DNA of 64,000 nt from contig JAKOVQ010000010.1 in the NCBI GenBank assembly GCA_029781975.1, forward strand, positions 234,375 to 298,374, written 5' to 3'. The stretch is from Acidobacteriota bacterium. Lineage in GTDB: Bacteria > Acidobacteriota > Thermoanaerobaculia > UBA5066. Below, piece after piece: positions 7,685 through 51,480 of this stretch; the first letter of the stretch is position 1, and each line of letters begins with the position of its first letter. Below the pieces are notes generated by a model. It saw only the letters and a list, made by a program, of their open reading frames with translations, had not been told where the DNA came from and ran no database searches. The translations under genes and the position numbers were made by a program.

Positions 7685-7995
7685 AATCTCACTCCTGTCG
7701 TGAACCTCGGCCTCTTCTTCATGGCCGCACCGGCGGCGCGTAGTCACGATTGGGGCGCGAGCCGAGGTCGAATCCGCTTCCTCAACCTATAAGTGGCCGG
7801 AAACCGCGAAAACTCAGACAGGCGATCGAGAGAATTCCGAAGAAAGTTGCCCGGCGGAAGGGCGACGCGGTCGCAACGTCCGGGCGAGGCCATTGGCCCG
7901 TGGGCACGCCCGGGCTCCGACGGGGGCCGGAGCGGGCAGGAATACGGCGAGCCTTCTCGCCGTTACGGAACGGGTTAGCCTTGCGCGAGGAGTCG

Positions 7996-10710
7996 ATGAA
8001 CGAAGCTCCCCTTCCCTGGCACGCCCGTCCGGCGGCCGATGTCCTTTCGTCCCTGGAGTCCCTCCCTGCCGGCCTCGACCCGGCCGAGGCGGGCCGGAGG
8101 CTCGCCCGCTTCGGGCCCAACGTCCTCCCCAAGGGGGAGGTCGAGGGGCCGCTCTCCCTCCTCTGGCGCCAGGTCAACAACCCGCTCATCTGGGTCCTGA
8201 TCGCCTCGTCGGGGCTGGCCCTGGCGCTCGGGAAGGGGGTCGACGCCGCGGTCGTCCTCGGCGTCGTCGTCCTGAACGCCGTGATCGGCTTCCTGCAGGA
8301 GTGGAAGGCGGGCCAGGCGCTCGCCGCGCTGGAAGGGCTCGTCCCAGACCTCGCCACCGTCGTCCGCTCCGGGGAGCGGCGCACCGTCCCGGCCGCCGAG
8401 CTCGTCCCCGGCGACGTCGTCGCCCTCCAGTCGGGCGACAAGGTCCCCGCCGACCTCCGCCTCGTCTCGCTCCGCAACCTCCAGGTAACCGAGGCGGCCC
8501 TCACCGGCGAATCGCTCCCTTCCGCGAAGGGCCCCGACCCCCTCGAGGAGGACGCGCCCCTGGCCGACCGGAGGAACATGGCCTTCTCCGGCACCCTCGT
8601 GGCGTCGGGGACGGCCGAAGGGGTCGTCGTGGCCACGGGCGGCGCCACCGAGCTCGGCCGGATCTCCTCGCTCCTGGCGTCGACCACGGAGGTGGAGACG
8701 CCGCTCACCCGCTCGCTCGCGCGCGTGGGAAAGGGGCTGACCTGGGCCATCGTGGTCGTCTCGATCGTCCTCTTCGGCGTCGCCCTCCTCCGCGGCTTCC
8801 CGCTCGTCGACGCCGCGCTCGCGGCGATCACGCTGGCGGTCGCCGCCATCCCCGAGGGGCTCCCCGCGATCATCACCATCACGCTCGCGATCGGCGTCCA
8901 GCGGATGGCGCGGCGCCGCGCCGTGGTCCGGCACCTGCCGTCGGTCGAGACGCTCGGCTCCACCACCGTCATCTGCTCCGACAAGACCGGGACGCTGACG
9001 CGGAACGAGATGACGGTGACGCACGTCTGGACCGCGGCCGGGAGCTTCGAGCTGACGGGCGTCGGCTACGCGCCCGAGGGACGCCTCCTCCGCGACGGCC
9101 GGCCGCTCGACGCCGCGCCCGCCGACGTGGCGGACCTCCTCTCGGCTGGCGCGCTCTGCAACGACGCGAACCTGGAGCGAGTCGAGGGAACCTGGACCCT
9201 CCACGGCGACCCGACCGAGGGGGCGATCGTCGTCGCGGCCGAGAAGGCGGGGCTCGGCGTCGAGGCGCTGCGCGCCGGCTCGCCGAGGCGCGACGTCTTC
9301 CCCTTCGAGTCCGAGAACCAGTTCATGGCGACGTTCCACGAGACGCCGTCGGGACCGCTCCTCTTCGTGAAGGGGGCCCCGGAGGCCGTCTTCCGGATGG
9401 CGTCGGGCGGACCGGGCGGTACGCCGCTCGACGCCGGCGCCGTCGTCGCGGCGGCGCGCGGCCTGGCGCGCGAGGGGATGCGGGTCCTCGCGGTCGCCCG
9501 GAAGGCCGGCCGTCCCGCGGGCCCGGCGCTCGCCCGCGAGGACGTGGCGTCGGGGCTCGAGTTCCTCGGGCTGGTCGGGATGATCGACCCGCCGCGCCCG
9601 GAGGCGATCGAGGCGGTGGCGGCCTGCCACCGCGCCGGCATCACGGTGAAGATGATCACCGGCGACCACCCGGAGACCGCCGCGGCCATCGGGAGAGAGC
9701 TCGGGCTCCCGGCGGAAGGGGAGGCCGTCACCGGACGGATGCTCGCGAAGATGGACGCCGCCGCCCTCGCCGAGTCGGCGGCGACGCGGAACGTCTTCGC
9801 CCGGGTCGCCCCCGAGCACAAGCTGAAGCTCGTCGGCGCGCTCCAGGCCCGGGGAGAGGTCGTCGCGATGACCGGCGACGGCGTGAACGACGCCCCGGCC
9901 CTCAAGCAGTCCGACATCGGGGTGGCGATGGGGATCACGGGGACGGCGGCCTCGAAGGAGGCGGCCGACCTCGTCCTCACCGACGACAACTTCGCCTCGA
10001 TCGCCGCAGCGGTCGAGGAGGGGCGGCGGATCTGGGACAACCTCGTCAAGTCGCTCGCCTTCGTCCTGCCGACGAACATCGGCGAGGCGCTCCTGATCCT
10101 CGTCGCCGTCGCCGCCTTCCCGATCGAGGACGGCCAGCCGCTCCTCCCCGTTCTCCCGGTCCAGATCCTCTGGATCAACCTCGTCGCGACGGTGACGCTC
10201 GCCCTCCCGCTCGCCTTCGAGGCGCGCGAGCCCGACGTCATGAGCCGGCCGCCGCGGAAGCCGGGGACCCCGATCCTCGACGGCTTCCTCCTCCTCCGGA
10301 CGGTCGGAGTCGCCGTCCTGATGGCGGCGGCGTCGATCGGCCTCTTCCTCCACGAGCTGCGGCGGGACCTGGCGGCGGGGCACGAGCCGGGCGAGGCGCT
10401 CAGGGAGGCGCAGACGATGGCGGTGACGACCATCATCCTCTTCCAGGTCTTCTACCTCCTGAACTGCCGGTCGCTCAAGGACTCGATCCTGAAGATCGGC
10501 CTCTTCACGAACAACGCCGTCTGGGCGGGGATCGGGGCGCTCCTCGTCCTGCAGGCGGCGTTCGTCTACGCTCCTCCCCTCCAGCTCCTCTTCGGTTCCG
10601 CGCCGCTGGACGGCGCCGAGCTCGCCAAGTCCGCCCTGGCGGGCGCGGTGGTCCTCCCCGTCATCGTCGCGGAGAAGGTGATCCGCGCGCGGCGCGCGCG
10701 GGCGTCCTGA
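7996..10710 (+). CDS. Cation-transporting P-type ATPase, type II (Ca2+/Mg2+-like)
   Basis: ATG at 7996 with GAGGAG 6 nt upstream. Motifs present: TGES (TGESLP), the phosphorylation site CSDKTGTLT, MITGDHPETA, the hinge motif GDGVNDAPAL, and 10 predicted TM segments. The ORF track frame begins at 7750, but the N-terminal 82 aa are low-complexity and unlike a protein. Confidence 0.85.
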   Translation: MNEAPLPWHARPAADVLSSLESLPAGLDPAEAGRRLARFGPNVLPKGEVEGPLSLLWRQVNNPLIWVLIASSGLALALGKGVDAAVVLGVVVLNAVIGFLQEWKAGQALAALEGLVPDLATVVRSGERRTVPAAELVPGDVVALQSGDKVPADLRLVSLRNLQVTEAALTGESLPSAKGPDPLEEDAPLADRRNMAFSGTLVASGTAEGVVVATGGATELGRISSLLASTTEVETPLTRSLARVGKGLTWAIVVVSIVLFGVALLRGFPLVDAALAAITLAVAAIPEGLPAIITITLAIGVQRMARRRAVVRHLPSVETLGSTTVICSDKTGTLTRNEMTVTHVWTAAGSFELTGVGYAPEGRLLRDGRPLDAAPADVADLLSAGALCNDANLERVEGTWTLHGDPTEGAIVVAAEKAGLGVEALRAGSPRRDVFPFESENQFMATFHETPSGPLLFVKGAPEAVFRMASGGPGGTPLDAGAVVAAARGLAREGMRVLAVARKAGRPAGPALAREDVASGLEFLGLVGMIDPPRPEAIEAVAACHRAGITVKMITGDHPETAAAIGRELGLPAEGEAVTGRMLAKMDAAALAESAATRNVFARVAPEHKLKLVGALQARGEVVAMTGDGVNDAPALKQSDIGVAMGITGTAASKEAADLVLTDDNFASIAAAVEEGRRIWDNLVKSLAFVLPTNIGEALLILVAVAAFPIEDGQPLLPVLPVQILWINLVATVTLALPLAFEAREPDVMSRPPRKPGTPILDGFLLLRTVGVAVLMAAASIGLFLHELRRDLAAGHEPGEALREAQTMAVTTIILFQVFYLLNCRSLKDSILKIGLFTNNAVWAGIGALLVLQAAFVYAPPLQLLFGSAPLDGAELAKSALAGAVVLPVIVAEKVIRARRARAS

Positions 10711-10713
10711 ACT

Positions 10714-10740
10714 CCGCGGCGCGCGGCTCTTCTGTATCAT
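10714..10740 (+). terminator. Possible intrinsic terminator after the P-type ATPase: a GC hairpin (ccgcg gcg cgcgg) followed by a T-rich tract (ctcttctgtatcat)
   Basis: Read directly from the sequence 4 nt after the TGA at 10708-10710. The stem is short, 5 bp. Confidence 0.25.
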
Positions 10741-10750
10741 CCCCGGCTTC

Positions 10751-11926
10751 ATGGGCAGGTCGGTGCGCGTCCTCGTCGGGGCGGCGGTCTTCCTCGCGGC
10801 GGTTTCCGCCATCCACGTGAGGTACGCCCGTCGCGGCTTCGGGGGCGGTCCCGTGGAGAGCAGGGAGGCGGCCGCCCGGGGGGAGGAGCTCGTCGTCGGG
10901 CACCTCCCGGTCACGTGACACCTGACCTGCCCCGTCACCAGTTGGGTGACGACGCACTCCGGCTCGGGCTCGCAGTTCATCTCGAAGAGGTACACGAACT
11001 TCTCGGCCGTCGTGGAGGACATGACCGCCGGCAACCTGAAGGCCAGCTTCATCCTGGCCCCCCTCGCGATGGTGATGAACCGCAAGGGGGTGCCCGTGAA
11101 GATCGTCTACCTCGGCCACCGGGACGGCACGACGATGGTGGTGAGGACCGACTCGCCCTACCACACGTTCGCGGACCTGAAGGGGAAGCGGATCGCCATC
11201 CCGCACCGGTTCTCGAACCAGCGGATCCTCGTGGAGAAGCTGAAGGAGCGGTTCGGGTTCGGGCCGGACGACGTGACGCTCGTCGACTTCCCGCCGCCCG
11301 AGATGCCGGCCGCCCTGAAGACCGGCCAGATCGACGCCTACGTGGTGGGCGAGCCGTTCCCCGCGAAGGCCCAGATCGAGGGGTACGGCCGGGTCCTCTA
11401 CTTCACGAAGGACATCTGGCCGAACTTCATCTCCTGCGTCCTGGTCGTCCACGAGAGCCTCATCAAGGAGCACCGGGCGCTCGTCGAGGAGCTGGTCCGC
11501 GGGATCGCGAAGTCGGGGATGTGGATCGACGCGCCGGGCGAGGACCTCGCGAAGGGGGTGATGTGCGCGAGCGACGTCGTCCCGGGGACCCCCGGGCGCG
11601 ACCGCCTCACCCTGATCCCCGACGGCTTCGGGAAGACGCACCGGATGCAGGCCGCGGCCATCGCCGCGCGCCGCGAGTACTACAACCAGGACCCGGAGCT
11701 CCTGAAGTTCGTCCTGACGCAGCCGCCGGACCGCGTCAAGTACACGAACCTCCTCCCGGCGAAGAAGGACTTCGAGGAGATCCAGCGCTACGCCGAGAGG
11801 CTCGGCTACTTCTCCTTCCGGCCGGTGACGGCGGCCGACCCGTTCCGGTTCGAGGACTACTGCGACACGTCGTTCGCCGTCGAGGCGCAGGAGACCGCCG
11901 CCGCTCGGGCCGCGGCCGGACGCTGA
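10751..11926 (+). CDS. ABC-transporter substrate-binding protein of the NitT/TauT (NMT1/SsuA/NrtA-like) family. The reading frame is broken by an in-frame TGA at 10916-10918 (pseudogene, sequencing error or recoding). The track ORF 10946..11926 is the downstream part.
   Basis: ATG at 10751 opens MGRSVRVLVGAAVFLAAVSAIHV (a signal peptide) and continues …ELVVGHLPVT, which is the conserved start of mature NMT1-type SBPs. A TGA follows, and the same frame then runs on as HLTCPVTSWVTTHSGSGSQF…LKASFILAPLAM (compare NrtA …LDAAHMLAPMPI). 10751 and 10946 are both congruent to 2 mod 3, so they share a frame. Confidence 0.6.
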
Positions 11927-11936
11927 GCGGACCGTC

Positions 11937-12713
11937 GTGAACCGCCTCCGCCGCATCGCCCGCCCCCTCCTGGGGATGGCCGCGTTCCTCCTCGTCTGGC
12001 AGCTGGCGACGCTGGGGAACAAGCGGACCGACATCCCGGGGCCTTACCTGACCTGGATGGGCCTCTCCGAGATCCTCCACCAGGGGGTCCTCGCCCGGAA
12101 CGTCGTGGCGTCGGTCTTCCGCGTCTCGTGGGGCTTCGCGATCGCAACGGTCGCCGGCATCCCGCTCGGGATCCTCCTCGGCCGCCTCCCCGTCCTCCAC
12201 CAGCTCGTCAACCCGAACATCCAGCTCCTCCGGCCGATCTCCCCCATCGCCTGGCTCCCGATCGCGACGCTCCTCTTCGGGACCGTGAGGTGGATGGACC
12301 CGAGCGACCTGGCGGCCATCTTCCTGATCTTCCTCTCGTCCTTCTTCACGATCACGACCGCGACCGCCTCGGCCGTCGGCGCGGTGGAGCAGAAGTACCT
12401 CCGCTCGGCGGCGAACTTCGGCGTCACGGGGTTCGCCCTCGTCCGGAAGGTCCTCTTCCCGGCGGCCCTCCCCCAGATCCTCACCGGCCTGAGGCTCGCG
12501 CTCGGCGTGGCGTGGGTCGTCGTCGTCGCCGCCGAGATGCTCGGCGTCCAGTCGGGCCTCGGCTTCCAGGTGAACGACGCGCGGAACAACCTCCGCTACG
12601 ACCTCGTCGTGGCGGCGATGGTCGTCATCGGCTTCATCGGCCTCGGGCTCGACGCCGCCATGAGGGCCGTGGAGCGGGCCGAGCTCGCGCGCCGGGGGCT
12701 CCTCCGGTCATGA
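11937..12713 (+). CDS. ABC transporter permease (NitT/TauT family, SsuC-like)
   Basis: Six predicted TM segments and the EAA-like region (…VEQKYLRSAANFGVTGFALVRKVLFPAALPQI). GTG start immediately after the SBP gene. The stop forms an ATGA overlap with the ATPase gene. Confidence 0.8.
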   Translation: MNRLRRIARPLLGMAAFLLVWQLATLGNKRTDIPGPYLTWMGLSEILHQGVLARNVVASVFRVSWGFAIATVAGIPLGILLGRLPVLHQLVNPNIQLLRPISPIAWLPIATLLFGTVRWMDPSDLAAIFLIFLSSFFTITTATASAVGAVEQKYLRSAANFGVTGFALVRKVLFPAALPQILTGLRLALGVAWVVVVAAEMLGVQSGLGFQVNDARNNLRYDLVVAAMVVIGFIGLGLDAAMRAVERAELARRGLLRS

Positions 12714-13480
12714 GCGCAGCGGCCGTCGCATCCGCGAAGATCCGCGTCGCCGGAGTCTTCAAGTCGTTCCGGACGAAGAAGGAGACCGTGGACGTCCTCG
12801 AGGGGGTCGACCTCGACGTGCGGCCGCAGGAGTTCCTCGCCATCGTCGGCCCGTCGGGCTGCGGCAAGTCGACGCTCCTCAACTGTATCGCCGGCTTCGA
12901 GCAGCTGACGAAGGGCTCCATCGAGATCGACGGCGAGAGGGTGAGGAAGCCGTCGCGCAAGAGGGTCTTCGTCTTCCAGGAGACCGGCATCTTCCCGTGG
13001 CTCACCGTGAGGGACAACATCGGATTCGGCCTCGGCGACCTCGAGCCCGGCGCGCGGGACGAGGTCGTCGCCCGGTACGTCGCCCTCGTCGGCCTTCAGG
13101 GGTTCGAGAAGGCCTACCCCGCCGAGCTCTCGGGGGGGATGAAGCAGCGGGTGGAGTTCGCCCGCGCCCTGGCCGTCGAGTCCGACGTCCTCTACCTCGA
13201 CGAGCCGTTCGGGGCGCTCGACGCCTTCACGCGCCTCGAGATGCGGCGGGAGATCGCCCGGATCTGGAAGGCGACCGGCAAGACGTGCCTCCTCGTGACG
13301 CACGACGTGGAGGAGGCGGTGGAGCTGGCCGACCGAATCGCGGTGATGACGCGCCGCCCGGCCCGGATCGAGAGGATCCTCGAGAACCCCCTGCCGCGCC
13401 CCCGCGACCCGGACGACACGGGGTTCCGGGAGCTGAAGGACCAGATCTTCGACATCCTCGGCGTCGAGCGGCGCGTGTGA
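12710..13480 (+). CDS. ABC transporter ATP-binding protein (NitT/TauT family)
   Basis: Walker A GPSGCGKST, signature LSGGMKQR, Walker B LYLDEPFGALD, H-loop VTHD. The ATG at 12710 overlaps the permease stop (ATGA). The 5' part of the track ORF (from 12128) is low-complexity filler. Confidence 0.85.
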   Translation: MSAAAVASAKIRVAGVFKSFRTKKETVDVLEGVDLDVRPQEFLAIVGPSGCGKSTLLNCIAGFEQLTKGSIEIDGERVRKPSRKRVFVFQETGIFPWLTVRDNIGFGLGDLEPGARDEVVARYVALVGLQGFEKAYPAELSGGMKQRVEFARALAVESDVLYLDEPFGALDAFTRLEMRREIARIWKATGKTCLLVTHDVEEAVELADRIAVMTRRPARIERILENPLPRPRDPDDTGFRELKDQIFDILGVERRV

Positions 13481-15684
13481 CCGGGCGCCGGCGGCTGCTC
13501 CTCGTCGCGCTCGCCGCGCTCCTTTCGGCCGCGGGGGTCTGGCTCTACCGGAACGCCTCGCTCCCGCGCCTACGGGCTGAGTTCGTGCCGTGGATGAGGA
13601 AGCTCGAGCGGTGGCGCGACGCCGTGGAGCTCGCGCGGAACGCCGCCGCCAGACGGGAGGCCGCTCCGGGCGACCCGGCGGGAGAGGCCGCCCTGAGGGG
13701 GTGGGCCTGGGCCGGGCTCGAGCGGGTCGACGGGGTCTTCACCGACGTCGAGAAGCCGCGGCATCCGGGCGGAGGGATCGAGACCTCGGGTCGCGTCCTC
13801 TTCCTCGTCGACGGCTTCCGCCCCGGCGGGACCCGGGTCGAGCGGCAGGCGTGGGTCCGCGTCGAGTCGCCCGAGCCCGGGGGCGGCGGGGTACCCCGCG
13901 TCACCCTCGAGGGGGGCGTCACCGAGCGGGTCGAGCCTGAGCCCCGCTTCCACGAGGCCACCCGGGAGGCTGGCCTCGGGGCGCCACGGAACGACCCGCC
14001 CTTCAAGCTGACGAATCGCCTCATCGACGGGATCTGGCCCGGCTCCGGGGTCGCCGTCCTCGACTTCGACCGCGACGGCGACGAGGACCTCTTCGTCGCC
14101 GACGGCGTGAGATCGATCCTCTACGAGAACGACGGGGACGGCCACTTCGCCGACGTGACGGAGCGGGCGGGCCTCGCCCGCTCGGCGACGGAGGGGATCC
14201 GCGCGACGGGTGTGGCCGCCGGCGACCTCGACGGGGACGGGTACCCGGACCTCGTCGTCACCGACGCCTTCGGCCCGACGCGGCTCTTTCGGAACCGGCG
14301 CGACGGGACGTTCGAAGAGACGACGGCCGCCTCGGGCGTCGTGACGCGGGGCTCGACGCGGTCCGCCACGCTGGCAGACGTCGACGGCGACGGCGACCTC
14401 GACCTCTTCGTCTGCGTCACGGGCGACTACTACCGCCAGATGCCCGACCCGCCGTTCGACGCCAACGACGGCGGCCGGAACTATCTCTTCCTCAACGACG
14501 GCCACGGGCGCTTCGCCGACGCCACCGCCGCCTGGGGGCTCGGGAAGGCCACCCGCTGGTCACTCTCGGCCCTCTTCGCCGACGTCGACGGCGACGGGCG
14601 GCCCGACCTGGTCGTGACGAACGACTTCGGCCTGAAGAACCTCTACCGGAACGTCGACGGGAGGCGCTTCGTCGACGTGACCGCGAAGGCCGGCGTCGAG
14701 GACCGGGGCTACGGGATGTCGGCCGCCTGGGGGGACTTCGACGGCGACGGCCGGCTCGACCTCTACACCACCGGGACCTACACGCAGTGGGGGTTCTTGC
14801 ACGAGTACCCGGGGCTCCCGGTCCCGCTGCCGGGGCGCCTCTTCCTCCCCTTCGCGGTCTCGTGGATGGAGAAGATGTGCGCCGGGAACTCGCTCTTCCT
14901 CCAGCGGGGCGACGGGAGGTTCGAGGAGGCGACCGCGCGCTCGGGGGCCGCGAAGGCGGGGTGGTGCTGGAGCGCCGTCGCGGCCGACCTCGACGGCGAC
15001 GGCTGGCTCGACCTGGCGACGACGAACGGGATGTGGGGCGACGGCCGCGAGCACGACCGCGAGCTGGAGTTCTGGTGGGAGACGCTCGCCTACTGGGACG
15101 ACTACATCGCCGGGACGACGACGTTCGACCAGAAGCGGACGGCCGTCCAGGGGATCGAGCGAGACGCCCTCTTCGTGAACCGCGGCGCGGGGGCGCCGGC
15201 CGGCGGGACGCTCTTTGCGGAGCGCGCCTTTCTCGACGGCTTCGACCCGAAGACCAACGGCCGGGCCCTCGTCGCCTTCGACGCGAACGGCGACGGCGCG
15301 CTCGACCTCTACCTCCGCTCCGTCCAGGCGCCCGAGGCCCTCTACCTCGGCTCGCGGCGCCCGGGCGAGCACTACCTGAGGCTCCGGCTCGCCGGGACGA
15401 AGGGGAAGGACAACGCCGACGGCGTCGGCGCCCGGGTCACGGCGGCGCTGCCCGACGGCCGCGTCCTCGTCCGCGAGAACGGCAATGCCAGCGGCTTCCT
15501 GGCGTCGGCGAGCCCGATCGTCCACCTCGGCCTCGGCGGGGCGACGCGCGTCGCGCGGCTCACGGTCCGCTGGCCTTCGGGGTTCGTCCAGGAGCTCGGC
15601 CCGGTCGACGTCGTCGACCGGACGGTCACGGTGGACGAGGCGTCGGGGCTCGCCGCGCCGGTTTCCGCCGCGTCCTCGCGCTGA
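13477..15684 (+). CDS. CRTAC1-family protein (FG-GAP/VCBS repeats plus a C-terminal ASPIC/UnbV domain) with an N-terminal membrane anchor
   Basis: The GTG at 13477 overlaps the ATPase stop (GTGTGA). The N-terminus TGRRRLLLVALAALLSAAGVWLY is a signal anchor. Repeated D.DGDG..DL motifs (FG-GAP). The C-terminus GVGARVTAALPDGRVLVRENGNASGFLASASPIVHLGLGGATRVARLTVRWPSGFVQ is typical of UnbV_ASPIC. Confidence 0.7.
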   Translation: MTGRRRLLLVALAALLSAAGVWLYRNASLPRLRAEFVPWMRKLERWRDAVELARNAAARREAAPGDPAGEAALRGWAWAGLERVDGVFTDVEKPRHPGGGIETSGRVLFLVDGFRPGGTRVERQAWVRVESPEPGGGGVPRVTLEGGVTERVEPEPRFHEATREAGLGAPRNDPPFKLTNRLIDGIWPGSGVAVLDFDRDGDEDLFVADGVRSILYENDGDGHFADVTERAGLARSATEGIRATGVAAGDLDGDGYPDLVVTDAFGPTRLFRNRRDGTFEETTAASGVVTRGSTRSATLADVDGDGDLDLFVCVTGDYYRQMPDPPFDANDGGRNYLFLNDGHGRFADATAAWGLGKATRWSLSALFADVDGDGRPDLVVTNDFGLKNLYRNVDGRRFVDVTAKAGVEDRGYGMSAAWGDFDGDGRLDLYTTGTYTQWGFLHEYPGLPVPLPGRLFLPFAVSWMEKMCAGNSLFLQRGDGRFEEATARSGAAKAGWCWSAVAADLDGDGWLDLATTNGMWGDGREHDRELEFWWETLAYWDDYIAGTTTFDQKRTAVQGIERDALFVNRGAGAPAGGTLFAERAFLDGFDPKTNGRALVAFDANGDGALDLYLRSVQAPEALYLGSRRPGEHYLRLRLAGTKGKDNADGVGARVTAALPDGRVLVRENGNASGFLASASPIVHLGLGGATRVARLTVRWPSGFVQELGPVDVVDRTVTVDEASGLAAPVSAASSR

Positions 15685-15709
15685 GAACAGTTTTCATTAT
15701 TATCCGGGC

Positions 15710-17323
15710 ATGGCAGCCACGGAAGACGTCCAGGTCGCGACATCCACCTCCTCCGGCGCCGAGCCCACGGCTTACGACGTCGTGGTCCTCGGCGGCGCCC
15801 TCGCGGGCGCCTCGACGGCCATCCTCCTCAGAAGGCGGATGCCGGGCGTCCGCGTCCTCGTCGTCGAGAAGAGCGAGGCGTTCGACTGGAAGGTCGGGGA
15901 GTCGACGGTCGAGATCTCGGCCTACTTCCTCTCGCGCGTCCTCCGCCTCTACGACTACCTCTCGCGCGAGCAGCTGACGAAGCAGGGGTTCCGCTACTGG
16001 TTCCACAACGAGAAGGTCACCTCCCTGAGGGAGGCCTCGGAGGTCGGGCCGACGCAGCTCGCCCGTACCCCGGGCTTCCAGCTCGACCGCGCCCACCTCG
16101 ACGAGCACGTCCTCGGCGTCGCCGCGAAGGAAGGGGCCGAGGTCTGGCGGCCTGCGAAGGTCGTCGACGTCTCGCTCGAGGGGGAGGCCGGCAACTCGGT
16201 GACGGTCGAGAAGGGGGACGGGACCCGGGTCACCGTGAGGGCGAGGTGGGTCGTCGACGCCACGGGCCGGCAGGCGCTCCTGGCGCGCAAGCGGGGCGGG
16301 GTCCTCCCCGTGGAGGGGCACCCCACGGCGTCGATCTGGGTCCGCTTCCGCGGCGTGAAAGACCTCGACGGGGCGGAGCTCGCGAGCGACCCCGCCGACC
16401 CGTTCGTCCGCCCGGTCATCGCGGCCCGGCGCCTCGCCACGAACCACTTCACCGGCTACGGCTACTGGATCTGGTTCATCCCGCTCCGCGGCGGGGAGAC
16501 GAGCGTGGGCCTCGTCTGGGACACCCGCCTCGTCCAGCCGGAGGGGACGACCCCCCTCGACAAGCTGCGGCGGTTCCTCGACGCCAACCCCCTGACGCGC
16601 GAGATGCTCGAGCGCGCGACGCCGGTGGAGGGGGACTGCCGCTACTACGGGAACCTCCCCTACTTCGTCGACAGGTTCATCGGCCCGGGATGGGCCTGCG
16701 TCGGCGACGCGGGCGGCTTCATCGACCCCTTCTACTCGCCCGGGCTCGACCAGATGGGCTTCTCCGTCCACATGCGGGTGGAGCTGATCCGGAAGGCCCT
16801 GGCGGGCGCCCCGGCCGCGAAGATGGAGGAGGAGTACGCGCTCCACAACAAGCGGTACGACCGGTTCCTCCGCTACTTCTACGAGTCGATCTACCGCGAC
16901 AAGTACTACCTGATGGGCGACTACGACACGATGACGACGTCGTTCCTGATGGACACCGCCCTCTACTACCTCGTCGCGGTGCAGCCGATCTACCAGTGGT
17001 CGGCCGACCGCCTCGGCGTCCCGCCGTACTACCAGGACGGCGCGGAGGTCGGCCTCGTCCCGATCCGCTTCTACCAGCGGCGGCTGATCGCGATCGCGAA
17101 GCGGAAGCGGGAGCTCGGGATCTACGGCAACCACAACGCGGGGCGGCGGCCCGGCTTCGTCGGCTTCTCGCTCCGGAGCGCGGCGCTCGTGATGCTCGGC
17201 CACGGCCTCGCCCGCTGGGCCAAGGCCGAGGTGGCGAACGCCCTCTCGTACGTCGTCCGCCCTCGGCCCGTGACCGGCCCGGGCCCCGTCCTCCCGCCGC
17301 ACCTCGCCCCGACGGGGAGCTGA
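15710..17323 (+). CDS. Flavin-dependent halogenase (tryptophan-halogenase family)
   Basis: FAD-binding site DVVVLGGALAGAST; the halogenase hallmark WxWxIP appears as GYGYWIWFIPL; GDAGGFIDPFYSPGLD. ATG at 15710 after a short AT-rich spacer. Confidence 0.7.
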   Translation: MAATEDVQVATSTSSGAEPTAYDVVVLGGALAGASTAILLRRRMPGVRVLVVEKSEAFDWKVGESTVEISAYFLSRVLRLYDYLSREQLTKQGFRYWFHNEKVTSLREASEVGPTQLARTPGFQLDRAHLDEHVLGVAAKEGAEVWRPAKVVDVSLEGEAGNSVTVEKGDGTRVTVRARWVVDATGRQALLARKRGGVLPVEGHPTASIWVRFRGVKDLDGAELASDPADPFVRPVIAARRLATNHFTGYGYWIWFIPLRGGETSVGLVWDTRLVQPEGTTPLDKLRRFLDANPLTREMLERATPVEGDCRYYGNLPYFVDRFIGPGWACVGDAGGFIDPFYSPGLDQMGFSVHMRVELIRKALAGAPAAKMEEEYALHNKRYDRFLRYFYESIYRDKYYLMGDYDTMTTSFLMDTALYYLVAVQPIYQWSADRLGVPPYYQDGAEVGLVPIRFYQRRLIAIAKRKRELGIYGNHNAGRRPGFVGFSLRSAALVMLGHGLARWAKAEVANALSYVVRPRPVTGPGPVLPPHLAPTGS

Positions 17324-27285: not shown

Positions 27286-27358
27286 GGCTCCATTATCGGG
27301 GGAGGGGCTGCCTCCGCCGAGGGCGATTCCGGGGGGCCGCCCCGTGTACCATCGACGC

Positions 27359-28573
27359 ATGCCCCAGAGATCCGCCGTGGTCACCGGCCTGGGGGCGGTG
27401 ACCTCCCTCGGCAACGACCTCGCGAGCTCCTGGGCCGGCCTGGTGGCCGGCCGGTGCGGGATCGGGCCCATCACGGTCTTCGACCCCACGGGCTTCCGGA
27501 CGAACCTCGCCGCGGAGGTCCGCGCGCTCCCCGACGCCTGGATCGACGGCCGCCTCAGGCGCCGCCTCTCCCGGAGCGACGTCCTGGGGCTGACGGCGGC
27601 CCGCGAGGCGCTCGCCGGCTCCGGGATCGACCTCTCCGCCGAGGACCCGGCCCGGATCGCCGTCGTCCTGGGAGGGGGCGTCTCGGGGCTCCTCGACGCC
27701 GAGAACTACTACCGCGACCTCCTCTCGAAGGGCTTCCGGCGTGCCCGGCCGACGAGGGCCCTGAACCACCCCCCCGACCAGACGACCGACCGGATCGGCG
27801 AGCTCTGGGGCTTCTGCGGCCCGCGGGCCACCATCACGACCGCCTGCTCCTCCTCCGCCACCGCGATCGGCTACGCGGCCGACCTGATCCGCCACGGCAT
27901 CGCCGACGTCGTCGTCACCGGCGGCGCCGACTCGCTGGGGCGCCTCACCCACGGCGGCTTCAACGCCCTGCGCGCCGTCGACCCCGACCCCTGCCGGCCG
28001 TTCGACCGGAACCGGAAGGGGCTGACGATCGGCGAGGCGGCCGGGATCCTCGTCCTCGAGGAGGAGGAGCGCGCGCACAAGCGCGGCGCCCCGGTCCGCG
28101 CCCGGTTCCTCGGGTACGGCGTCACCGCCGACGCCCACCACATGACCCAGCCGGAGCCGAGCGGCGTCGCCGGCGCGCGGACGATCACCGCCTGCCTGAA
28201 GGCGGCCCGCCTCTCCCCGGAGGACGTCGACTACGTCAACGCCCACGGGACAGCCACCCAGCAGAACGACTCGGCCGAGACCGCGTCGATCAAGCTCGCG
28301 CTCGGCGAGAGGGCCCACCGCGTCCCGGTCTCCTCCTCGAAATCCATGCTCGGCCACTGCCTCTGCTCGGCCGGCGGGATCGAGGCGGTCGTCACCGTCC
28401 TCACCGTCGAGACGGGGATCCTCCCCCCGACGATCCACTACGAGGAGCCCGACCCCGAGTGCGACCTCGACTACGTCCCGAACACCGCCCGCGAGGCGCG
28501 CGTCCGCGTGGCCCTCTCGAACTCCTTCGCCTTCGGCGGGAACTCCACCGTCGTCGCGTTCGGAAGGGCCTGA
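27359..28573 (+). CDS. Beta-ketoacyl synthase (KS-alpha, FabF-like) with the Cys-His-His triad
   Basis: Active-site Cys in TITTACSSSATAIGYAAD; His in HHMTQPEP and VNAHGTAT; GHCLCSAGGIE; N-terminus AVVTGLGAVTSLG. ATG at 27359. Confidence 0.85.
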   Translation: MPQRSAVVTGLGAVTSLGNDLASSWAGLVAGRCGIGPITVFDPTGFRTNLAAEVRALPDAWIDGRLRRRLSRSDVLGLTAAREALAGSGIDLSAEDPARIAVVLGGGVSGLLDAENYYRDLLSKGFRRARPTRALNHPPDQTTDRIGELWGFCGPRATITTACSSSATAIGYAADLIRHGIADVVVTGGADSLGRLTHGGFNALRAVDPDPCRPFDRNRKGLTIGEAAGILVLEEEERAHKRGAPVRARFLGYGVTADAHHMTQPEPSGVAGARTITACLKAARLSPEDVDYVNAHGTATQQNDSAETASIKLALGERAHRVPVSSSKSMLGHCLCSAGGIEAVVTVLTVETGILPPTIHYEEPDPECDLDYVPNTAREARVRVALSNSFAFGGNSTVVAFGRA

Positions 28574-28598
28574 CGATGCGCGTCGCCCAGGAGCGCCG

Positions 28599-29726
28599 GT
28601 GAAGGCGCCCGTCGTCACCGGGGTCGGGGCCGTCACCCCGCTGGGGCGCGACATCCGGACGACGCGCGACCGCCTCGCCGCCGGGGCGTGCGCCATCGCC
28701 GACGTCGAGGCGCCGGAGGTCCCCGTCCGGCCGCTCCGCTCCCCCGCGGCCCGGATCGGGACCTTCACGACGGAGCCGGAGATGCCCCGCTCGAAGGCCC
28801 GCCGCCTCGACCGCGGCAGCCAGTACGCCGTCGTCGCCATCCGCCAGTGCCTCGCCGACGCCGGCTACGACGTGAAGGGGCGCGAGGACGACATGGGGAT
28901 CCTCCTCGGCTCGGGCTCCGCCGGAGCCGGCCCGCTCACCGACCTCGAGCGCCAGATGGCGGTCGAGTCGCCCGAGGCGGCCTCCCCGTTCCTCTTCCCG
29001 TACACCGTCGCCAACGCGCCGGCCTCGCTCGCGGCGATCGAGCTCGGCGTCCGCGGCCCGAACGTCACCATCACGCAGAAGGACCCGGCGGGGCTGAACG
29101 CCGTCTTCTACGCCCGGATGCTCCTGGCCGACGGGCGCGCCAGCGCCCTCGTGGCCGGCGGGGCCGACGAGTGGAACCTCACCTACCACCTCGCCTACGA
29201 GCGGCTCCACGCCACCCGGACTCAGAGCACGCCGGGGTACGCCCTCTCGGAGGGATGCGCGGTCCTCCTCCTCGAGGACGAAGACTCCGCGCGCGAGCGG
29301 GGCGCCCGGGTCCTCGCCCGCCTCGCCTCGATCGTCTCCACCGGCCGCCCCGTCTCTCCCCACCGGCGACGGACGCGAGCGACCGACGTGGCCGAGACGC
29401 TCGGCGAGGCGCTCGTCGACGCGGGGATCGAGCCGGACGCCGTCGGGCGCTTCGACCCGCGGCGCGTCGGGCTCCTCCACCTCTCGGCGAACGGCGTCCC
29501 CTGGATGGACGAGGCGGAGCGCAAGGCGGTCGAGCTGCTCTTCGGCCCGCACCCGCCGCCCCTCCGGACCATCAAGCACCAGATCGGCGAGAACCCGGTC
29601 GTCGGCGCGCTCCAGCTCGCCCTCTCCGCCCTGGCGCTGGGAGAGGACCCCTCGCTCGGCGCCGCCGTCGTCAACGTCCTCGGCGCGGGCGGCAACCAGA
29701 TCACCGCCGTCCTGACGGCGCCGTGA
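28599..29726 (+). CDS. KS-beta / chain-length-factor-like ketosynthase paralog, with the active-site Cys replaced by Gln
   Basis: A KS-like fold (VVTGVGAVTPLG…), but the position equivalent to the catalytic Cys reads VTITQKDPAGLNA (Gln). It lies 25 nt downstream of the KS gene, in the typical KS/CLF tandem arrangement. Confidence 0.7.
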   Translation: MKAPVVTGVGAVTPLGRDIRTTRDRLAAGACAIADVEAPEVPVRPLRSPAARIGTFTTEPEMPRSKARRLDRGSQYAVVAIRQCLADAGYDVKGREDDMGILLGSGSAGAGPLTDLERQMAVESPEAASPFLFPYTVANAPASLAAIELGVRGPNVTITQKDPAGLNAVFYARMLLADGRASALVAGGADEWNLTYHLAYERLHATRTQSTPGYALSEGCAVLLLEDEDSARERGARVLARLASIVSTGRPVSPHRRRTRATDVAETLGEALVDAGIEPDAVGRFDPRRVGLLHLSANGVPWMDEAERKAVELLFGPHPPPLRTIKHQIGENPVVGALQLALSALALGEDPSLGAAVVNVLGAGGNQITAVLTAP

Positions 29727-29782
29727 CGGCGTGACCATGCCGTGACCATGCCGTGACCACGCCGTGACCACGCCGTGACGAC
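29720..29782. repeat. Tandem 11-bp repeat array, 5-6 copies of gccgtgaccay, in the intergenic space between the CLF-like and thioesterase genes
   Basis: The array reads gccgtgacg-gcgtgaccat-gccgtgaccat-gccgtgaccac-gccgtgaccac-gccgtgacgac. The CLF stop TGA (29724-29726) lies inside the first unit. Every unit contains GTGA. Confidence 0.8.
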
Positions 29783-29816
29783 GCCATCCCTTCCGGCGAA
29801 GCCGCGCCCCTTCCGG

Positions 29817-30245
29817 ATGGAGGTCGACGTCCGCTTCCCGGAGGTCGACTCCTACGGCGTCGTCTGGCACGGCCACTACGTCCTCTACTTCGAGATCGTG
29901 AGGGACGCCCTCTGCACGGCCGGCGGCTTCTCCCCCTCCCAGGGGCTCGCCCTCGGCTACAAGGTCCCGATCACACGGTTCGAGGCCCAGGTGAGGCGCC
30001 CCGCCCTCCTCGACGACCGGCTCGAGCTCTCGTGCGTCCTCCGCCCCCCCGAGACCGCCAAGCTCGAGATGGAGTACGAGGTCCGCCGCGCGGCGACGCG
30101 CGAGCTCCTGGCGACCGGCTTCACCCAGCAGGTCTTCCTCAACCCGCAGGGCGAGCTGATGCTGACCTTCCCGATGCAGGTCCGCGGCCTCGTGGAGCGG
30201 GTCCTCGCCTTCCACCGGGGCGAGGCCGAGCTCGGCCGCGGCTGA
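29817..30245 (+). CDS. Hotdog-fold acyl-CoA/ACP thioesterase (4HBT/YbgC family)
   Basis: MEVDVRFPEVDSYGVVWHGHYVLYFE is the classic 4HBT N-terminus, with catalytic Asp and His context. The track ORF starts at the GTG at 29775, inside the repeat array. ATG at 29817 was preferred. Confidence 0.7.
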   Translation: MEVDVRFPEVDSYGVVWHGHYVLYFEIVRDALCTAGGFSPSQGLALGYKVPITRFEAQVRRPALLDDRLELSCVLRPPETAKLEMEYEVRRAATRELLATGFTQQVFLNPQGELMLTFPMQVRGLVERVLAFHRGEAELGRG

Positions 30246-48096: not shown

Positions 48097-51000
48097 ATGA
48101 AGATGCGTCTCCCGTCGCTCCGCCCCCGCCTCGCCGCCTCGTTCGCGCTTGCGTCCCTGCTCGCCGCCGGCGCCTCGCGGGCCGCGACGGTCACCTGGAC
48201 CGGCGGCGCGTCCGGGGCGTGGGAGACCCCGGGGAGCTGGAGCGCGGGCCGCGTGCCGGGCGCTGGCGACGACGTGGTCATCGACGGCGCGGTGACCGTC
48301 GTGACCCAGGAGGCGGCCACGGCCGGGACCCTGACGATCGGACACCAGGGGGGGGCCGCGAGGCCGTCGCTCGTCGTGGCGTCCACCCTCGACGTCGGAG
48401 CGGCGACCCTCTGGAGCGGGAGCCTGATCGTCGCCGCCGGGCCGGTCCGCGCGACGGCGGGCGTCTTCGTCCGCGGAGGGATCTACTCCAGCGCGGGACC
48501 CCTCGTCGGGAACCTCGACAACGACGGCGGCTGGGTCAACCCGAACGGCCTCTCGGTCTTCACCGTCTCCGGGAGCTACCGCCAGAGCGCCCGGTCGGGG
48601 CTGGTCGTCCTGGCGAACGGGACGGTCCCGGGCGTCTCCCTGGGACAGCTGGCGGTCTCCGGGTCCGCGATCCTCGACGGCTTCGTCCTCGTGGGACCGT
48701 ACGACACGTACCAGCCGGCCGCCGGCGACTCGTTCCGCGTCCTGGCCTACGGGGCGCGGAGCGGGCGATTCTCGTACGTCCAGGTCGGGGCGTTCGCCTC
48801 GGCCGTCTGCTTCCGGCAGAGCTACGGCTCCGGCGCGCTGACGCTGACCTCGACGACGGCGTCGCTTCCGGCGCCGGTCCTCACCTCGTTCCCGACCGCC
48901 CCCGTCACCGCGGGGAGCCGCTTCACCCTGGCCTGGAGCCCGGTCTTCGGCACGGCACGCGAGGGACGCTACGAAGTCCTCGCCTCGGCGAAGGCCGACT
49001 GCAGCGCGCCCCGCACGTTCACCACGACCGACCCCTCCCTCACGGTCCCGACCGAGGCCGGACAGGACGCCTCCTATTGCATCGCCGTCCGCGCGGTCTC
49101 GAGCGACGGTTGCGCGAGCGACGCCTCCCCGCCCGTCGTCGTCCAGGTGAAGGCGGCGCTCCCCTCCTTCGAGGTCGTGAAGCCCCAGCGCCCGCTCGCC
49201 GTGGCGAACCAGGGCCAGCCAGCGACGGCGACGTCGAGCGTCGCCTTCCGTAACGTCGGCGCGAGCCCCGGCTCCCTCCAGCTGGCGGCGCAGGGCGGCT
49301 TCTTCTCCGTGGCCCCGGCGGAATTCCCGGACGTCGCGCCAGGCCAGACCGTCGTCGCGACGCTCTCCTTCTCGGGGGCGTCGACCGTCCAGCCCGGCAT
49401 CCGGCTCGGGAGGCTCGTCGGCGCCTGGCAGGTCCAGGGCCAGCCGAGGGGGACGGCCACCCCGGTCCTCCTGGCGGTCCTTCCGGGGACGCCGCTCGCC
49501 AGCTCCGGATCGCGCCCCGAGCCGGTCGGCACGAACGAGATCCACTTCCGCACCTACGGCCCCGGATCCCCGACCCCGCGGCAGGCCACCATCCGGAACA
49601 CCGGGAGCAAGGCCTTGCGGCTGACGCCGGCGATCGGCCCGGGTGGAGCATGGCTCTCCGTGAGCGGCGACTTCACGACCCCTCTCGCGCCGGGCGAGGA
49701 GCGGGCCTTCACCCTCTCCGTCGACCGGACCCTGCGCTCCTCGGCGGACGGCCCCCCGCCGCTCGTCACCCTCCTCCGCTTCCAGAACGCGGACGGCACC
49801 GCGGACGACACGACCGACTTCCAGGTCTTCGACGAGGAGCTCCCGACCCCGGCGTCGGGGAGCGGCCGCCCCGCGCTCGCTCCCGGCGAGACCTCGCTCG
49901 TCTTCGGCTCCTCGGTGAGCGCCCAGGGAGCCGGGGCGACCTTCGTCTCCGACGGCTGGATCCGCAACGGCGGCTCCGACCCCGCCCCCCTCACCGTCTA
50001 CTACAGCCCCGACGGCGCCGCCGACGCCGACTCGCTGAAGAGCTCGTTCCTACTCCCGGCCTACACGACCGTCCGCCTCTCCGACTTCGTCCAGGGGCTC
50101 TTCGAGCGGAGCGGCAGCGGCCACGTGGAGGTCCGCTCGCCGGCGCTCGCCTCGCTCTCGGTGCGGACCACCGTCGACTCGCTCGTCACGAAGGGGGGGA
50201 TCGCCGTCCGCTACGGCGCCGAGATCCCGGTCGTGACAGCCGGCCAGGGGGTGGGATCGGACGAGGCGCCCGGCGCGTCGCTCTTCGTCACCGGGATCCG
50301 CGGCGGAGCGGGAGCGCCCTTCCGGACGAACGTGATCCTCGCCGAGACGTCGGGACGGGGCGCGACGGTCCTCCTCCGGCTCCGGGACGCGGCGGGGAGC
50401 GTCGTCTCCGAGGTCCAGAAGAGCGTCGCCGCCCACTCCAAGCTCCAGGTCAACGCGACCGACACGACCCTCTTCCCGTCCGCGGCCGCCTACGACCACG
50501 GTAGCCTCGAGGTCGTCCGCGTCGCCGGGACGGGGACCGTGGCCGCCTTCGCCACCGTGATCGACAACGCCTCCCAGGCGTACACGACGCGCCTCGGCCG
50601 CTTCCTCCCGTCGGCGACCGCGCCGAGCTCGGTGGCGATCGCCGCGCCCGGCCTCCGCGCGGGGACCCCGGCAGACGCGCCGCTCCTCGCCGCCTCGGCC
50701 ACCACGCTTCGCGCCGTCCTCCCCGCGGCCGCGCGCACCGAGGGGGTCAACGACTCCTTCTTCACCACCTCGGTCAGCCTGACGAACGGCTCCGCGGAGG
50801 CCGCCAGCGTCCAGCTGACCTACCGCCCAGACGTCGGAGACCCGGTCGGCCCGCTCCCGCTCACCGTCGCCGCGCGTGCGACCGTGACGCTCGACGACGT
50901 CGTGGGGACCTTCTTCCACCTCGCGACCGACACTGCCGGCACCGTCCTCTTCGAGGGGGACGACCTCGCGCGCCTCACCGTCGCCTCCGACACCTCGACG

Positions 51001-51480
51001 CCGATCGACCGGAGCCACCCGGAGAAGGGCGTCTCCCTCTCCACCCTCGCCTGGTACTCCGACTCCTCCCCCGAGGTCTTCGGCGCGCCCGAGTCGGGCG
51101 CCTCCGCGAACGTCGTCTCCCACCCCGGCCTCGAGGAGAGCGCGCAGTTCCGGACCAACCTCGTCCTCGCCGAGGTGACGGGCCAGCCCGCGACGGTTCG
51201 CGTCCGGATTACCGCCAAGGGCTCCGGCGGCGCCCCGCTCGCCGACCGCGAGGTCTCTCTCCCGCCGTTCGGCCGGGTCCAGATCAACCGCTTCCTCCGC
51301 GACCTGACCGGCCAGCCCGACGCCGAGCTCGTCGACGTCGAGACCTCGGTCGAGGCCGAGTCCGGCACGGGGCGCGTCGTCGTCCTCGCGACGAAGATCG
51401 CGAACGATCCCTCCTCCAAGCGCTCCGACATCTACGTCTTCCGCCCGACGGGGGAGGCCCAGGGGGCGATCGGGTTCTGA
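48097..51480 (+). CDS. Large secreted hypothetical protein (1127 aa, beta-rich, possible adhesin or surface protein)
   Basis: Signal peptide MKMRLPSLRPRLAASFALASLLAAGASRA. It is Gly/Ser/Thr/Val-rich with repeated beta-strand-like segments. No catalytic motif recognised. Confidence 0.55.
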   Translation: MKMRLPSLRPRLAASFALASLLAAGASRAATVTWTGGASGAWETPGSWSAGRVPGAGDDVVIDGAVTVVTQEAATAGTLTIGHQGGAARPSLVVASTLDVGAATLWSGSLIVAAGPVRATAGVFVRGGIYSSAGPLVGNLDNDGGWVNPNGLSVFTVSGSYRQSARSGLVVLANGTVPGVSLGQLAVSGSAILDGFVLVGPYDTYQPAAGDSFRVLAYGARSGRFSYVQVGAFASAVCFRQSYGSGALTLTSTTASLPAPVLTSFPTAPVTAGSRFTLAWSPVFGTAREGRYEVLASAKADCSAPRTFTTTDPSLTVPTEAGQDASYCIAVRAVSSDGCASDASPPVVVQVKAALPSFEVVKPQRPLAVANQGQPATATSSVAFRNVGASPGSLQLAAQGGFFSVAPAEFPDVAPGQTVVATLSFSGASTVQPGIRLGRLVGAWQVQGQPRGTATPVLLAVLPGTPLASSGSRPEPVGTNEIHFRTYGPGSPTPRQATIRNTGSKALRLTPAIGPGGAWLSVSGDFTTPLAPGEERAFTLSVDRTLRSSADGPPPLVTLLRFQNADGTADDTTDFQVFDEELPTPASGSGRPALAPGETSLVFGSSVSAQGAGATFVSDGWIRNGGSDPAPLTVYYSPDGAADADSLKSSFLLPAYTTVRLSDFVQGLFERSGSGHVEVRSPALASLSVRTTVDSLVTKGGIAVRYGAEIPVVTAGQGVGSDEAPGASLFVTGIRGGAGAPFRTNVILAETSGRGATVLLRLRDAAGSVVSEVQKSVAAHSKLQVNATDTTLFPSAAAYDHGSLEVVRVAGTGTVAAFATVIDNASQAYTTRLGRFLPSATAPSSVAIAAPGLRAGTPADAPLLAASATTLRAVLPAAARTEGVNDSFFTTSVSLTNGSAEAASVQLTYRPDVGDPVGPLPLTVAARATVTLDDVVGTFFHLATDTAGTVLFEGDDLARLTVASDTSTPIDRSHPEKGVSLSTLAWYSDSSPEVFGAPESGASANVVSHPGLEESAQFRTNLVLAEVTGQPATVRVRITAKGSGGAPLADREVSLPPFGRVQINRFLRDLTGQPDAELVDVETSVEAESGTGRVVVLATKIANDPSSKRSDIYVFRPTGEAQGAIGF

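Follow-up and report, generated by a model that had tools for sequence, protein, structure and literature searches.

A 64,000-nucleotide stretch of DNA from an Acidobacteriota bacterium (contig JAKOVQ010000010.1, positions 234,375 to 298,374 of the forward strand; hereafter the window, with positions counted from its first letter) carries a NitT/TauT-type ABC importer operon whose substrate-binding protein gene contains an in-frame TGA. Comparison of this gene with its homologs strongly suggests that the TGA at 10916-10918 (+) is a selenocysteine (Sec) codon and that 10751-11926 (+) is one intact gene, a reading to which we assign a probability of about 0.86. The frame begins with ATG at 10751-10753, passes through the TGA at 10916-10918 and ends with the stop TGA at 11924-11926, as the initial annotation had correctly located all three; it comprises 392 codons with a single internal stop, and reading through the TGA at codon 56 would give a complete binding protein of the NMT1_2 type with 391 residues. 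The 165 nt upstream of the TGA are coding in the same frame, with a G+C content at third codon positions (GC3) of 0.95 versus 0.99 downstream, in a window of 72% GC. In a six-frame scan of the whole window for TGA codons flanked on each side by at least 40 codons of coding-like composition, the one at 10916-10918 was the only hit. The residue it is predicted to specify, Sec56, belongs to the invariant motif LPVT-U-HLTCP (predicted Sec-site peptide of the window product, LPVT-U-HLTCPVTSWVTK), and the alignment gives it an invariant partner, Cys60 (codon TGC at 10928-10930 (+)), in a U-x3-C arrangement.

We read the codon at the TGA column in the DNA of 80 homologous loci drawn from one-genome-per-species collections. 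One locus is truncated, and the remaining 79 have TGA in 64 cases, TGC in 8 and TGT in 7, and nothing else; together with the window this gives 65 TGA loci (also called Sec loci below) and 15 Cys loci. The residue that homologs place opposite the TGA, which the initial annotation had guessed might be Cys, is Cys and only Cys, both in the 15 loci and in 20 of 20 full-length protein homologs aligned, which share the invariant motif LPVT-C-HLTCPVTSW. Close homologs recovered in the protein search are bimodal: about half have ~80% query coverage and start at 'MT', and the rest are full length, the full-length Cys homologs aligning end to end with the window product. The TGA form occurs in Planctomycetota, Acidobacteriota, Thermoanaerobaculia and the myxobacterium Paraliomyxa miuraensis, and it is present in the complete genomes of Engelhardtia mirabilis Pla133 and Rohdeia mirabilis Pla163. 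The nearest relatives of the window gene are from Acidobacteriota, with 74-78% identity.

These data bear on two simpler explanations that had been raised at the outset. The first is a sequencing or assembly error, with a sense codon such as TGC as the true codon. Single-base errors do happen in metagenome assemblies, and homologs with TGC or TGT exist; against this, an independent Logan assembly of run SRR15686344 is identical to the window over 301 nt around the site, TGA included, the same column holds TGA in 64 other species, and an RNA hairpin downstream co-occurs specifically with TGA (see below). Because the same TGA is found in an independent assembly and in 64 other species, it is not an assembly error, an option to which we now give practically no weight. 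The second is a recent pseudogene, in which a nonsense mutation would have inactivated the binding-protein gene. An in-frame stop within an otherwise intact gene does resemble a fresh nonsense mutation, but 64 species, from no fewer than three phyla, share the same "lesion", and the protein sequence before and after the TGA is conserved in a manner indicating purifying selection. The N-termini are intact too: the upstream frame is open and, in 63 of the 65 TGA loci, includes both a start codon and a hydrophobic helix. The permease and ATPase genes downstream are intact as well, the tree described below infers Sec as ancestral with at least six switches, and synonymous sites appear to be selected for RNA structure only where TGA is present. 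Because the TGA is conserved, both flanks are under purifying selection and the in-frame N-termini are intact, the gene is not a pseudogene, and this second option is hardly credible.

Further support for Sec comes from a hairpin at 10933-10951 (+), which the initial annotation had singled out. It consists of the arms cgtcacc (10933-10939) and ggtgacg (10945-10951), forming a 7-bp stem, and the apical loop agttg (10940-10944, AGUUG in RNA), and it begins at the 15th nt after the TGA, just as had been described. According to the published criteria, a bacterial Sec insertion sequence (bSECIS) has an apical loop of 3-9 nt on a stem of 4-16 bp, a G within the first two loop positions that is mostly followed by G or U, a distance of 16-37 nt from the UGA to the loop, and a minimum free energy (MFE) of -7.5 kcal/mol or lower (PMC13188914 Fig. 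2). The window hairpin lies within all of these limits: it has a 7-bp stem, an AGUUG loop with G at position 2 followed by U, a UGA-to-loop distance of 21 nt, which bears out the SECIS-like spacing noticed at first, and an MFE of -10.3 kcal/mol. Hairpins within the same limits are found in 63 of the 65 Sec loci, and the other two have a shifted hairpin that also falls within them.

The structure is closely tied to the TGA. Among the 65 TGA sequences, all 7 pairs are formed in 48 and at least 6 in 63, and the loop is AGTTG in 63, whereas the 15 Cys loci, with variable loops, all lack at least one of the 7 pairs. When pairs are counted over the 65 Sec sequences, 95.8% of the cells are paired; sliding the partner by 1-3 columns lowers this to 21-53%. 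In four of the seven pairs both partners have changed (five loci, for example, have GUG/GUC in place of GUC/GUG), and the covariation score was matched by none of 500 shuffles. The median hairpin MFE is -11.2 kcal/mol in the TGA loci and -2.4 kcal/mol in the Cys loci (P = 8e-10, Mann-Whitney test), and an MFE of -7.5 kcal/mol or lower is reached in 63 of 65 Sec loci versus 2 of 15 Cys loci. Moreover, synonymous sites are frozen in the Sec loci and free in the Cys loci, even though the peptide, PVTSWV[TS], is nearly identical. For instance, position +23 is C in 64 of the 65 TGA loci and may be G, T, C or A in the Cys loci. Of 64 TGA loci (median GC3 0.91), 62 encode the loop Ser by AGT; AGT makes up only 1.2% of the Ser codons in the window, and in the window gene only 8 of 392 codons end in A or T, the TGA and the loop AGT among them. 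In the two loci with a shifted hairpin (L046, 6160-6200, and L055, 2851-2891), PVVDWTT replaces PVTSWVT, with different residues on both arms, and an 8-bp stem with a 3-nt GUC or GUG loop is found instead (-12.1 kcal/mol); in these loci the SECIS appears to have been rebuilt, not lost. Taken together, these comparisons argue that the RNA structure is under selection and is lost when Cys replaces Sec, and they strongly support the identification of the hairpin at 10933-10951 as a SECIS element. Its near-invariant form, GGUCACC-AGUUG-GGUGACC, also provides a simple handle for searching further members.

The proposed course of events follows the established bacterial mechanism. The mRNA hairpin at 10933-10951, with its AGUUG loop 21 nt past the UGA, would act as a bacterial SECIS and recruit SelB-GTP-Sec-tRNA(Sec) to the ribosome; Sec would then be inserted at the UGA and the chain would not terminate, so that the product would be a 391-residue binding protein of a NitT/TauT-type ABC importer, held by an N-terminal membrane helix. 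For this organism we infer Sec decoding, and with it SelB-dependent insertion, from the features of the gene itself. Of the three options that the initial annotation had offered, recoding as selenocysteine is thus the one that gained strong support, and the hairpin it pointed to would be the SECIS.

Several observations weigh against this reading. The window hairpin taken alone is ordinary for its composition (z = -1.35; 22 of 200 shuffles fold as well), so that the early caution about hairpins being common in 70% GC DNA was justified for a single sequence. Since the single-sequence fold is not significant, we did not use it as evidence; the significance of the hairpin comes from the comparative data, and the caution is overcome because of the covariation and the contrast between Sec and Cys loci. 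Part of the hairpin conservation is due to the conserved peptide PVTSWVT, which is also kept in the Cys forms. ARAGORN found no tRNA-Sec in the 64-kb window or in the 80 homologous loci, no SelA, SelB or SelD domain is present among the 34 window open reading frames (ORFs) searched with Pfam, and neither selA, selB, selD nor tRNA-Sec lies beside any homologous locus. The recoding scan gave no second selenoprotein gene in the 64-kb window. The Sec reading of the window protein also rests on sequence, selenium in the protein being a prediction.

Reassignment of the genetic code, with UGA read as Trp or Gly, is ruled out because TGA is the ordinary stop of 26 of the 33 predicted window genes. A further alternative is that the UGA is handled without Sec. 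In one variant, a near-cognate or suppressor tRNA for Trp, Cys, Gly or Arg reads the UGA and the hairpin is a generic stimulator; in the other, translation stops and restarts at GTG 10946, which would give a 55-aa membrane peptide and a cytoplasmic 326-aa protein. The lack of Sec machinery in the window and beside the homologous loci would agree with either variant, hairpins 3' of stop codons can in general stimulate read-through, and the GTG is only 27 nt downstream of the UGA. Yet the sole alternative codons at the column are Cys codons, a hallmark of Sec/Cys exchange, and the hairpin fits constraints specific to bSECIS elements in its loop G-U and its spacing. According to the model, a restart would leave a 326-aa product with neither membrane anchor nor strand beta1, this genome mainly uses TGA as its ordinary stop, and Sec machinery and Sec decoding have been documented in several Planctomycetes (PMC4807772). 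Recoding or restart without Sec is thus improbable, and we retain Sec insertion as the explanation.

The annotated ORF is too short. The GTG at 10946-10948 (+), which encodes Val66, is an artefact of gene callers, which take it for the start codon and so yield a truncated annotation of 326 aa; it is part of the hairpin's 3' arm. The truncated homologs in databases all start at this same place, with 'MT' just after the TGA column, and the Paraliomyxa homolog in RefSeq (WP_266223350.1) is truncated to 324 aa. In such calls by gene callers and RefSeq, the key residue is missing along with the membrane anchor and the first strand.

To place the TGA form in evolution, we built a neighbour-joining tree of 80 proteins. 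Parsimony puts Sec at the root and requires at least six Sec/Cys switches, and Sec appears to be the ancestral state. One Phycisphaerales metagenome-assembled genome has both a Sec copy (L074, CAZBBB010000013.1) and a Cys copy with TGC (L080, CAZBBB010000014.1) of the cassette, a pair resembling the Sec/Cys isoform pairs of methanogens. In the same tree, the genes of two loci assigned to 'Candidatus Paceibacteria' (L061) and 'Pseudohongiellaceae' (L065) nest among Planctomycetota, and their contigs may be mis-binned. An exhaustive HMMER search of 1.84 billion representatives gave 211 clusters at E <= 1e-30, and several second-tier proteins in this search are truncated at the same place as the window annotation. 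Two sister-subfamily loci with 41-47% identity to the window protein have TGA at the same column, in the motifs AYIPVT-TGA-HLACP (L086, TGA at 617-619) and GFLPVT-TGA-HLTCP (L087, TGA at 57-59); the RNA downstream of these TGAs differs from that of the core family. A third sister locus (L088) has TGC at the column. Counting the core family and the two sisters, Sec is therefore predicted at the same column in at least three subfamilies.

The binding protein itself is clearly of NMT1_2 type (PF13379; 105.1 bits versus a gathering cutoff of 24.7, E = 7e-30). The AlphaFold model (pLDDT 86.2, pTM 0.80) shows a helix (residues 3-28), then a disordered linker (29-41, pLDDT <50) and strand beta1 (46-51); Sec56 lies in the beta1-alpha1 loop, and Cys60 is at the N-terminus of helix alpha1 (residues 59-69). 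The hydrophobic helix and the linker, encoded at 10757-10834 (+), are evident from both the model and hydropathy: the maximal 19-aa hydropathy of the helix is 2.1 in the window and at least 1.6 in 63 of the 65 Sec loci, and the helix is probably a membrane anchor or signal anchor. Where the initial annotation had a signal peptide, the N-terminus resembles one membrane helix with a disordered linker behind it, and the TGA, which was thought to separate signal peptide from mature domain, is in the model inside the mature domain, after strand beta1. The closest structure is PDB 3UN6 (hmmsearch E = 1.4e-37; Foldseek E = 4e-24, TMt 0.88, rmsd 2.6 A), followed by CmpC/NrtC regulatory domains, TauA, SsuA, ThiY, NrtA, Thi5, PqqT and DszB. 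The two-lobed periplasmic binding-protein fold was recognised by Foldseek with probability 1.00 for 3UN6, the CmpC regulatory domain, TauA, SsuA, NrtA and ThiY.

No model of NCBIfam release 20 captures the window binding protein. It scores 112.8 bits against the SsuA family (TIGR01728, SsuA_fam; cutoff 163.5), is below the curated cutoff for TauA and reaches 58.1 bits (E = 7.5e-16) for SaoX (NF040735; cutoff 300), and the gene lies outside the nine-gene SAO locus in which SaoX is found (SaoL, SaoA, SaoP, SaoB, SaoE, SaoC, SaoT, SaoD). For SaoB (NF040727), there is no match at E up to 0.01, and the motif is U-H-L-T-C, not CU. The window permease scores 144 bits against the SaoP permease model (NF040733; cutoff 295) and has neither Cys nor an in-frame TGA.

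As the initial annotation proposed, the binding-protein gene heads an intact ABC operon of binding protein, permease and ATPase. The permease gene, at 11937-12713 (+), encodes a product without Cys or Sec (Pfam BPD_transp_1, 1.6e-23); it begins 10 nt past the binding-protein stop and is a neighbour of the binding-protein gene in 83 of 88 loci. The gene for the ATP-binding protein, at 12710-13480 (+) (Pfam ABC_tran, 9e-34), starts within the permease stop (ATGA), and 79 of the 88 loci have it. Conservation around the gene is limited to this three-gene cassette, as judged from de novo ORF clustering (which is noisy, owing to shadow ORFs in high-GC DNA), tblastn searches with the window neighbours, and the Pfam-annotated contexts of four homologs, which were all different.

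Several features point to a role of Sec56 in the ligand cleft. The beta1-alpha1 loop lines the ligand cleft in this fold. All 80 family members keep U/C56, H57, C60, H123, R124, D125 and C229; Cys60 is also present in both Sec-containing sister loci, and every one of the 67 Sec cases has it. Profile alignment puts the His of 'LPIT-H' in 3UN6 on the Sec column, and the sister subfamilies have Cys, Asp, His or Ser there, usually followed by His. With Cys, Asp and His interchanging, the column looks like a coordinating position, and Sec56 is probably a metal or ligand contact. In studies of clade B CO dehydrogenase, 3UN6-like NitT/TauT binding proteins are described as metal-binding (PMC6344411; PMC13592312), and an AlphaFold 3 model places two Cys and one or two His around zinc or another metal (PMC13592312). 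In the window protein, Sec56 and Cys60 would form a soft (Se/S/N) site in the cleft together with the invariant His57, His123 and Cys229, and the alignment and fold make it most likely that these five residues hold a metal or capture the ligand. Of the two, we tentatively prefer a site that binds a metal, or that holds a metal which in turn binds the true substrate.

An alternative is that Sec56 and Cys60 form a redox selenenylsulfide pair that captures a sulfur or selenium substrate covalently, or that the protein is a DszB-like enzyme and not a passive receptor. Cys60 is beside Sec in all 67 cases, as resolving cysteines are in redox selenoproteins, and is modelled at a helix N-terminus; most known selenoproteins are redox-active with U/C pairs (PMC13188914). 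DszB, a Cys-dependent desulfinase, has the same fold, which therefore supports Cys chemistry, the NitT/TauT family often transports sulfur compounds, and the invariant R124, D125, N156, Q157, E201, R298, D327 and R328 suggest a polar small-molecule ligand. Nevertheless, Asp and His at the Sec column in the sisters and His in zinc-bound 3UN6 are more in keeping with coordination than with thiol chemistry, redox pairs are usually spaced otherwise than U-x3-C, and no thioredoxin-like or reductase partner is present in the conserved cassette. We consider covalent capture or catalysis a serious but less likely alternative, and a coordinating site in the cleft remains our preferred view of Sec56. 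Some points count against the functional proposal as a whole: selenols and thiols are seldom free in an oxidising periplasm, the proposed cleft site is derived from alignment and fold, no conserved partner gene among the homologous loci points to a substrate, and neither does a riboswitch, Rfam having no match in the window and only two ordinary tRNAs in 22 loci.

The remaining genes of the window are not part of the conserved unit. Upstream, a P-type cation ATPase gene (Cation_ATPase_N/C, E1-E2; 7750-10710 (+)) ends 40 nt before the binding-protein gene and is not conserved beside the cassette in any other locus except the nearest relative; its true start is probably later than annotated, because ~85 extra residues precede the first domain in the longest ORF. 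Between the two genes, a short GC-rich hairpin followed by a T-rich stretch resembles a terminator (10714-10726 (+)), and terminator-like sites in the region are no commoner than in shuffled sequence. Directly after the ABC operon is a gene for an FG-GAP/ASPIC-UnbV repeat protein (13480-15684 (+)) without an in-frame TGA; for two planctomycete genomes, the published lists of selenoprotein candidates include proteins of the FG-GAP/ASPIC-UnbV type (PMC4807772 Table S9). A Trp-halogenase-like FAD-dependent protein is encoded farther downstream of the operon (15485-17323 (+)). The P-type ATPase, FG-GAP/UnbV and halogenase-like FAD genes beside the cassette are common only to the window and its nearest relative (L001). 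In another locus (L083, 8723-10834), the gene called after the permease has a 703-aa product with FAD/halogenase-like and ABC_tran domains together; this protein and the FAD protein of the window are not close homologs, and their likeness may be a coincidence or a gene-calling fusion.

Elsewhere in the window, two adjacent ketoacyl-synthase genes, the second without a C-terminal KS match and hence chain-length-factor-like, are followed by a 4HBT thioesterase gene (27344-30245 (+)), which looks like a small type II fatty-acid or polyketide-like cluster. An ECF-type sigma factor gene and a TPR protein gene (53894-55275) lie just upstream of a gene for a large TPR-CHAT protein of 1165 aa (55298-58795 (+)), which is followed by an AAA_14/DUF4143 ATPase gene (58829-60073). 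Three ORFs of 1127, 766 and 883 aa (48097-51480 (+), 51487-53787 (-) and 60226-62877 (-), respectively) have a strong coding signature and no Pfam match at E <= 1e-4.

We lean towards the view that the window gene represents a large uncatalogued selenoprotein family, an NMT1_2 clade of ABC binding proteins in Planctomycetota, Acidobacteriota, Thermoanaerobaculia and marine myxobacteria in which Sec is the ancestral and majority state of a ligand-contact residue in the cleft (U-H-x2-C). If so, it would be the first case of a selenoprotein family of binding proteins beyond strict anaerobes, Sec would serve binding or capture of a soft metal or a sulfur or selenium compound, not redox catalysis, and the genes would be cut short systematically in public annotation. 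It would add a transport-related selenoprotein that does not look redox-active to lineages little studied for selenium (Planctomycetota, Acidobacteriota and Myxococcota), and once the family is recognised, the annotation of dozens of species genomes and many metagenome records would be corrected. It is a speculation that the transporter scavenges a chalcogen or a thiophilic trace element, possibly selenium itself. The at least six natural Sec/Cys switches, together with one genome containing both forms, make the family a good system for studying the benefit of Sec over Cys in a binding site. The position in the beta1-alpha1 loop would also be marked as a key ligand or metal contact of 3UN6-like NitT/TauT binding proteins, including those of clade B CO dehydrogenase operons.

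The recoding mechanism is standard, and it is the family, the position of Sec and the taxonomic setting that appear to be new. The initial annotation had stated that no selenoprotein of this family is known; this stands in so far as the family and its Sec position are absent from the catalogues and libraries checked, and it needs the qualification that Sec-containing ABC binding proteins are known, namely SaoB, rare SaoX and BtuF (bioRxiv 10.1101/2022.07.06.499078; PMC13188914). The first proposal of Sec in an ABC binding protein dates from 2022 and concerned SaoB, as well as SaoX of a single species; the genes of both lie in a nine-gene operon restricted to anaerobes (bioRxiv 10.1101/2022.07.06.499078). 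A review of May 2026 lists 119 prokaryotic selenoprotein families, with SaoB, SaoX and BtuF as the only binding proteins, and among these 119 families there is no NMT1/SsuA-type entry with U-x3-C (PMC13188914). Our literature search found no paper describing this binding-protein selenoprotein family. One unnamed 'hypothetical' candidate of planctomycete P1, whose closest match is a Cys protein of Rhodopirellula sallentina (PMC4807772 Table S9), could be neither linked to the window family nor excluded.

Among known systems, the bSECIS consensus (PMC13188914) is shared in its general design, an intragenic hairpin right after the UGA with a small apical loop containing G and then U, whereas the AGUUG loop and the stem sequences are specific to the window family, in which SelB binding is a prediction. 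BtuF is likewise a predicted selenoprotein among ABC binding proteins (CxxU; PMC13188914 Table 1), but differs in its unrelated fold class (cd01144), its motif and its cobalamin ligand. NrtA/CmpA (PDB 2G29, 2I48), SsuA and TauA belong to the same NitT/TauT fold and family, NrtA/CmpA have a similar C-terminal extension, and some homologs are named 'bicarbonate-binding' in databases; these proteins nevertheless share only 13-20% identity with the window protein and are without the U/C-H-x2-C motif, and nitrate, bicarbonate or sulfonate as the ligand finds no support in these data. The S. aureus protein 3UN6, the ligand-binding component of an ABC-type importer with zinc bound, shares the motifs LPxT-x, LGH, IPHRYS, EPF and C(C)VLV, and a metal site in the cleft has been observed or modelled in 3UN6 and in the 3UN6-like proteins linked to CO dehydrogenase (PMC6344411, PMC13592312); it differs in having His at the Sec column and Leu at the Cys60 column, with ~22% identity, and is not a selenoprotein. 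SaoX (CD2365 family, NF040735) is a distant, NMT1-like homolog with a Cys-rich cleft and rare Sec forms, but it is a lipoprotein, it is always within the SAO operon, and its Sec (TU at 191-192) is elsewhere in the chain and known only from Negativibacillus massiliensis. SaoB (Haft & Gwadz 2022, NF040727) offers a parallel in kind: it too is a binding protein of an ABC importer with Sec in the predicted ligand pocket and with Cys homologs, it is usually mis-annotated as two ORFs, and its Sec has been proposed to contact the ligand by binding a metal, not to be classically redox-active. SaoB belongs, however, to another binding-protein lineage with an amino-acid-type fold (PDB 3VVE, 4ZV2), has a CU dipeptide, and is restricted to a nine-gene operon of anaerobes together with a Sec-containing permease, whereas the window family is of NMT1_2 type, has U-x3-C, and is encoded in a three-gene cassette with a Cys-free permease in Planctomycetota, Acidobacteriota and Myxococcota.

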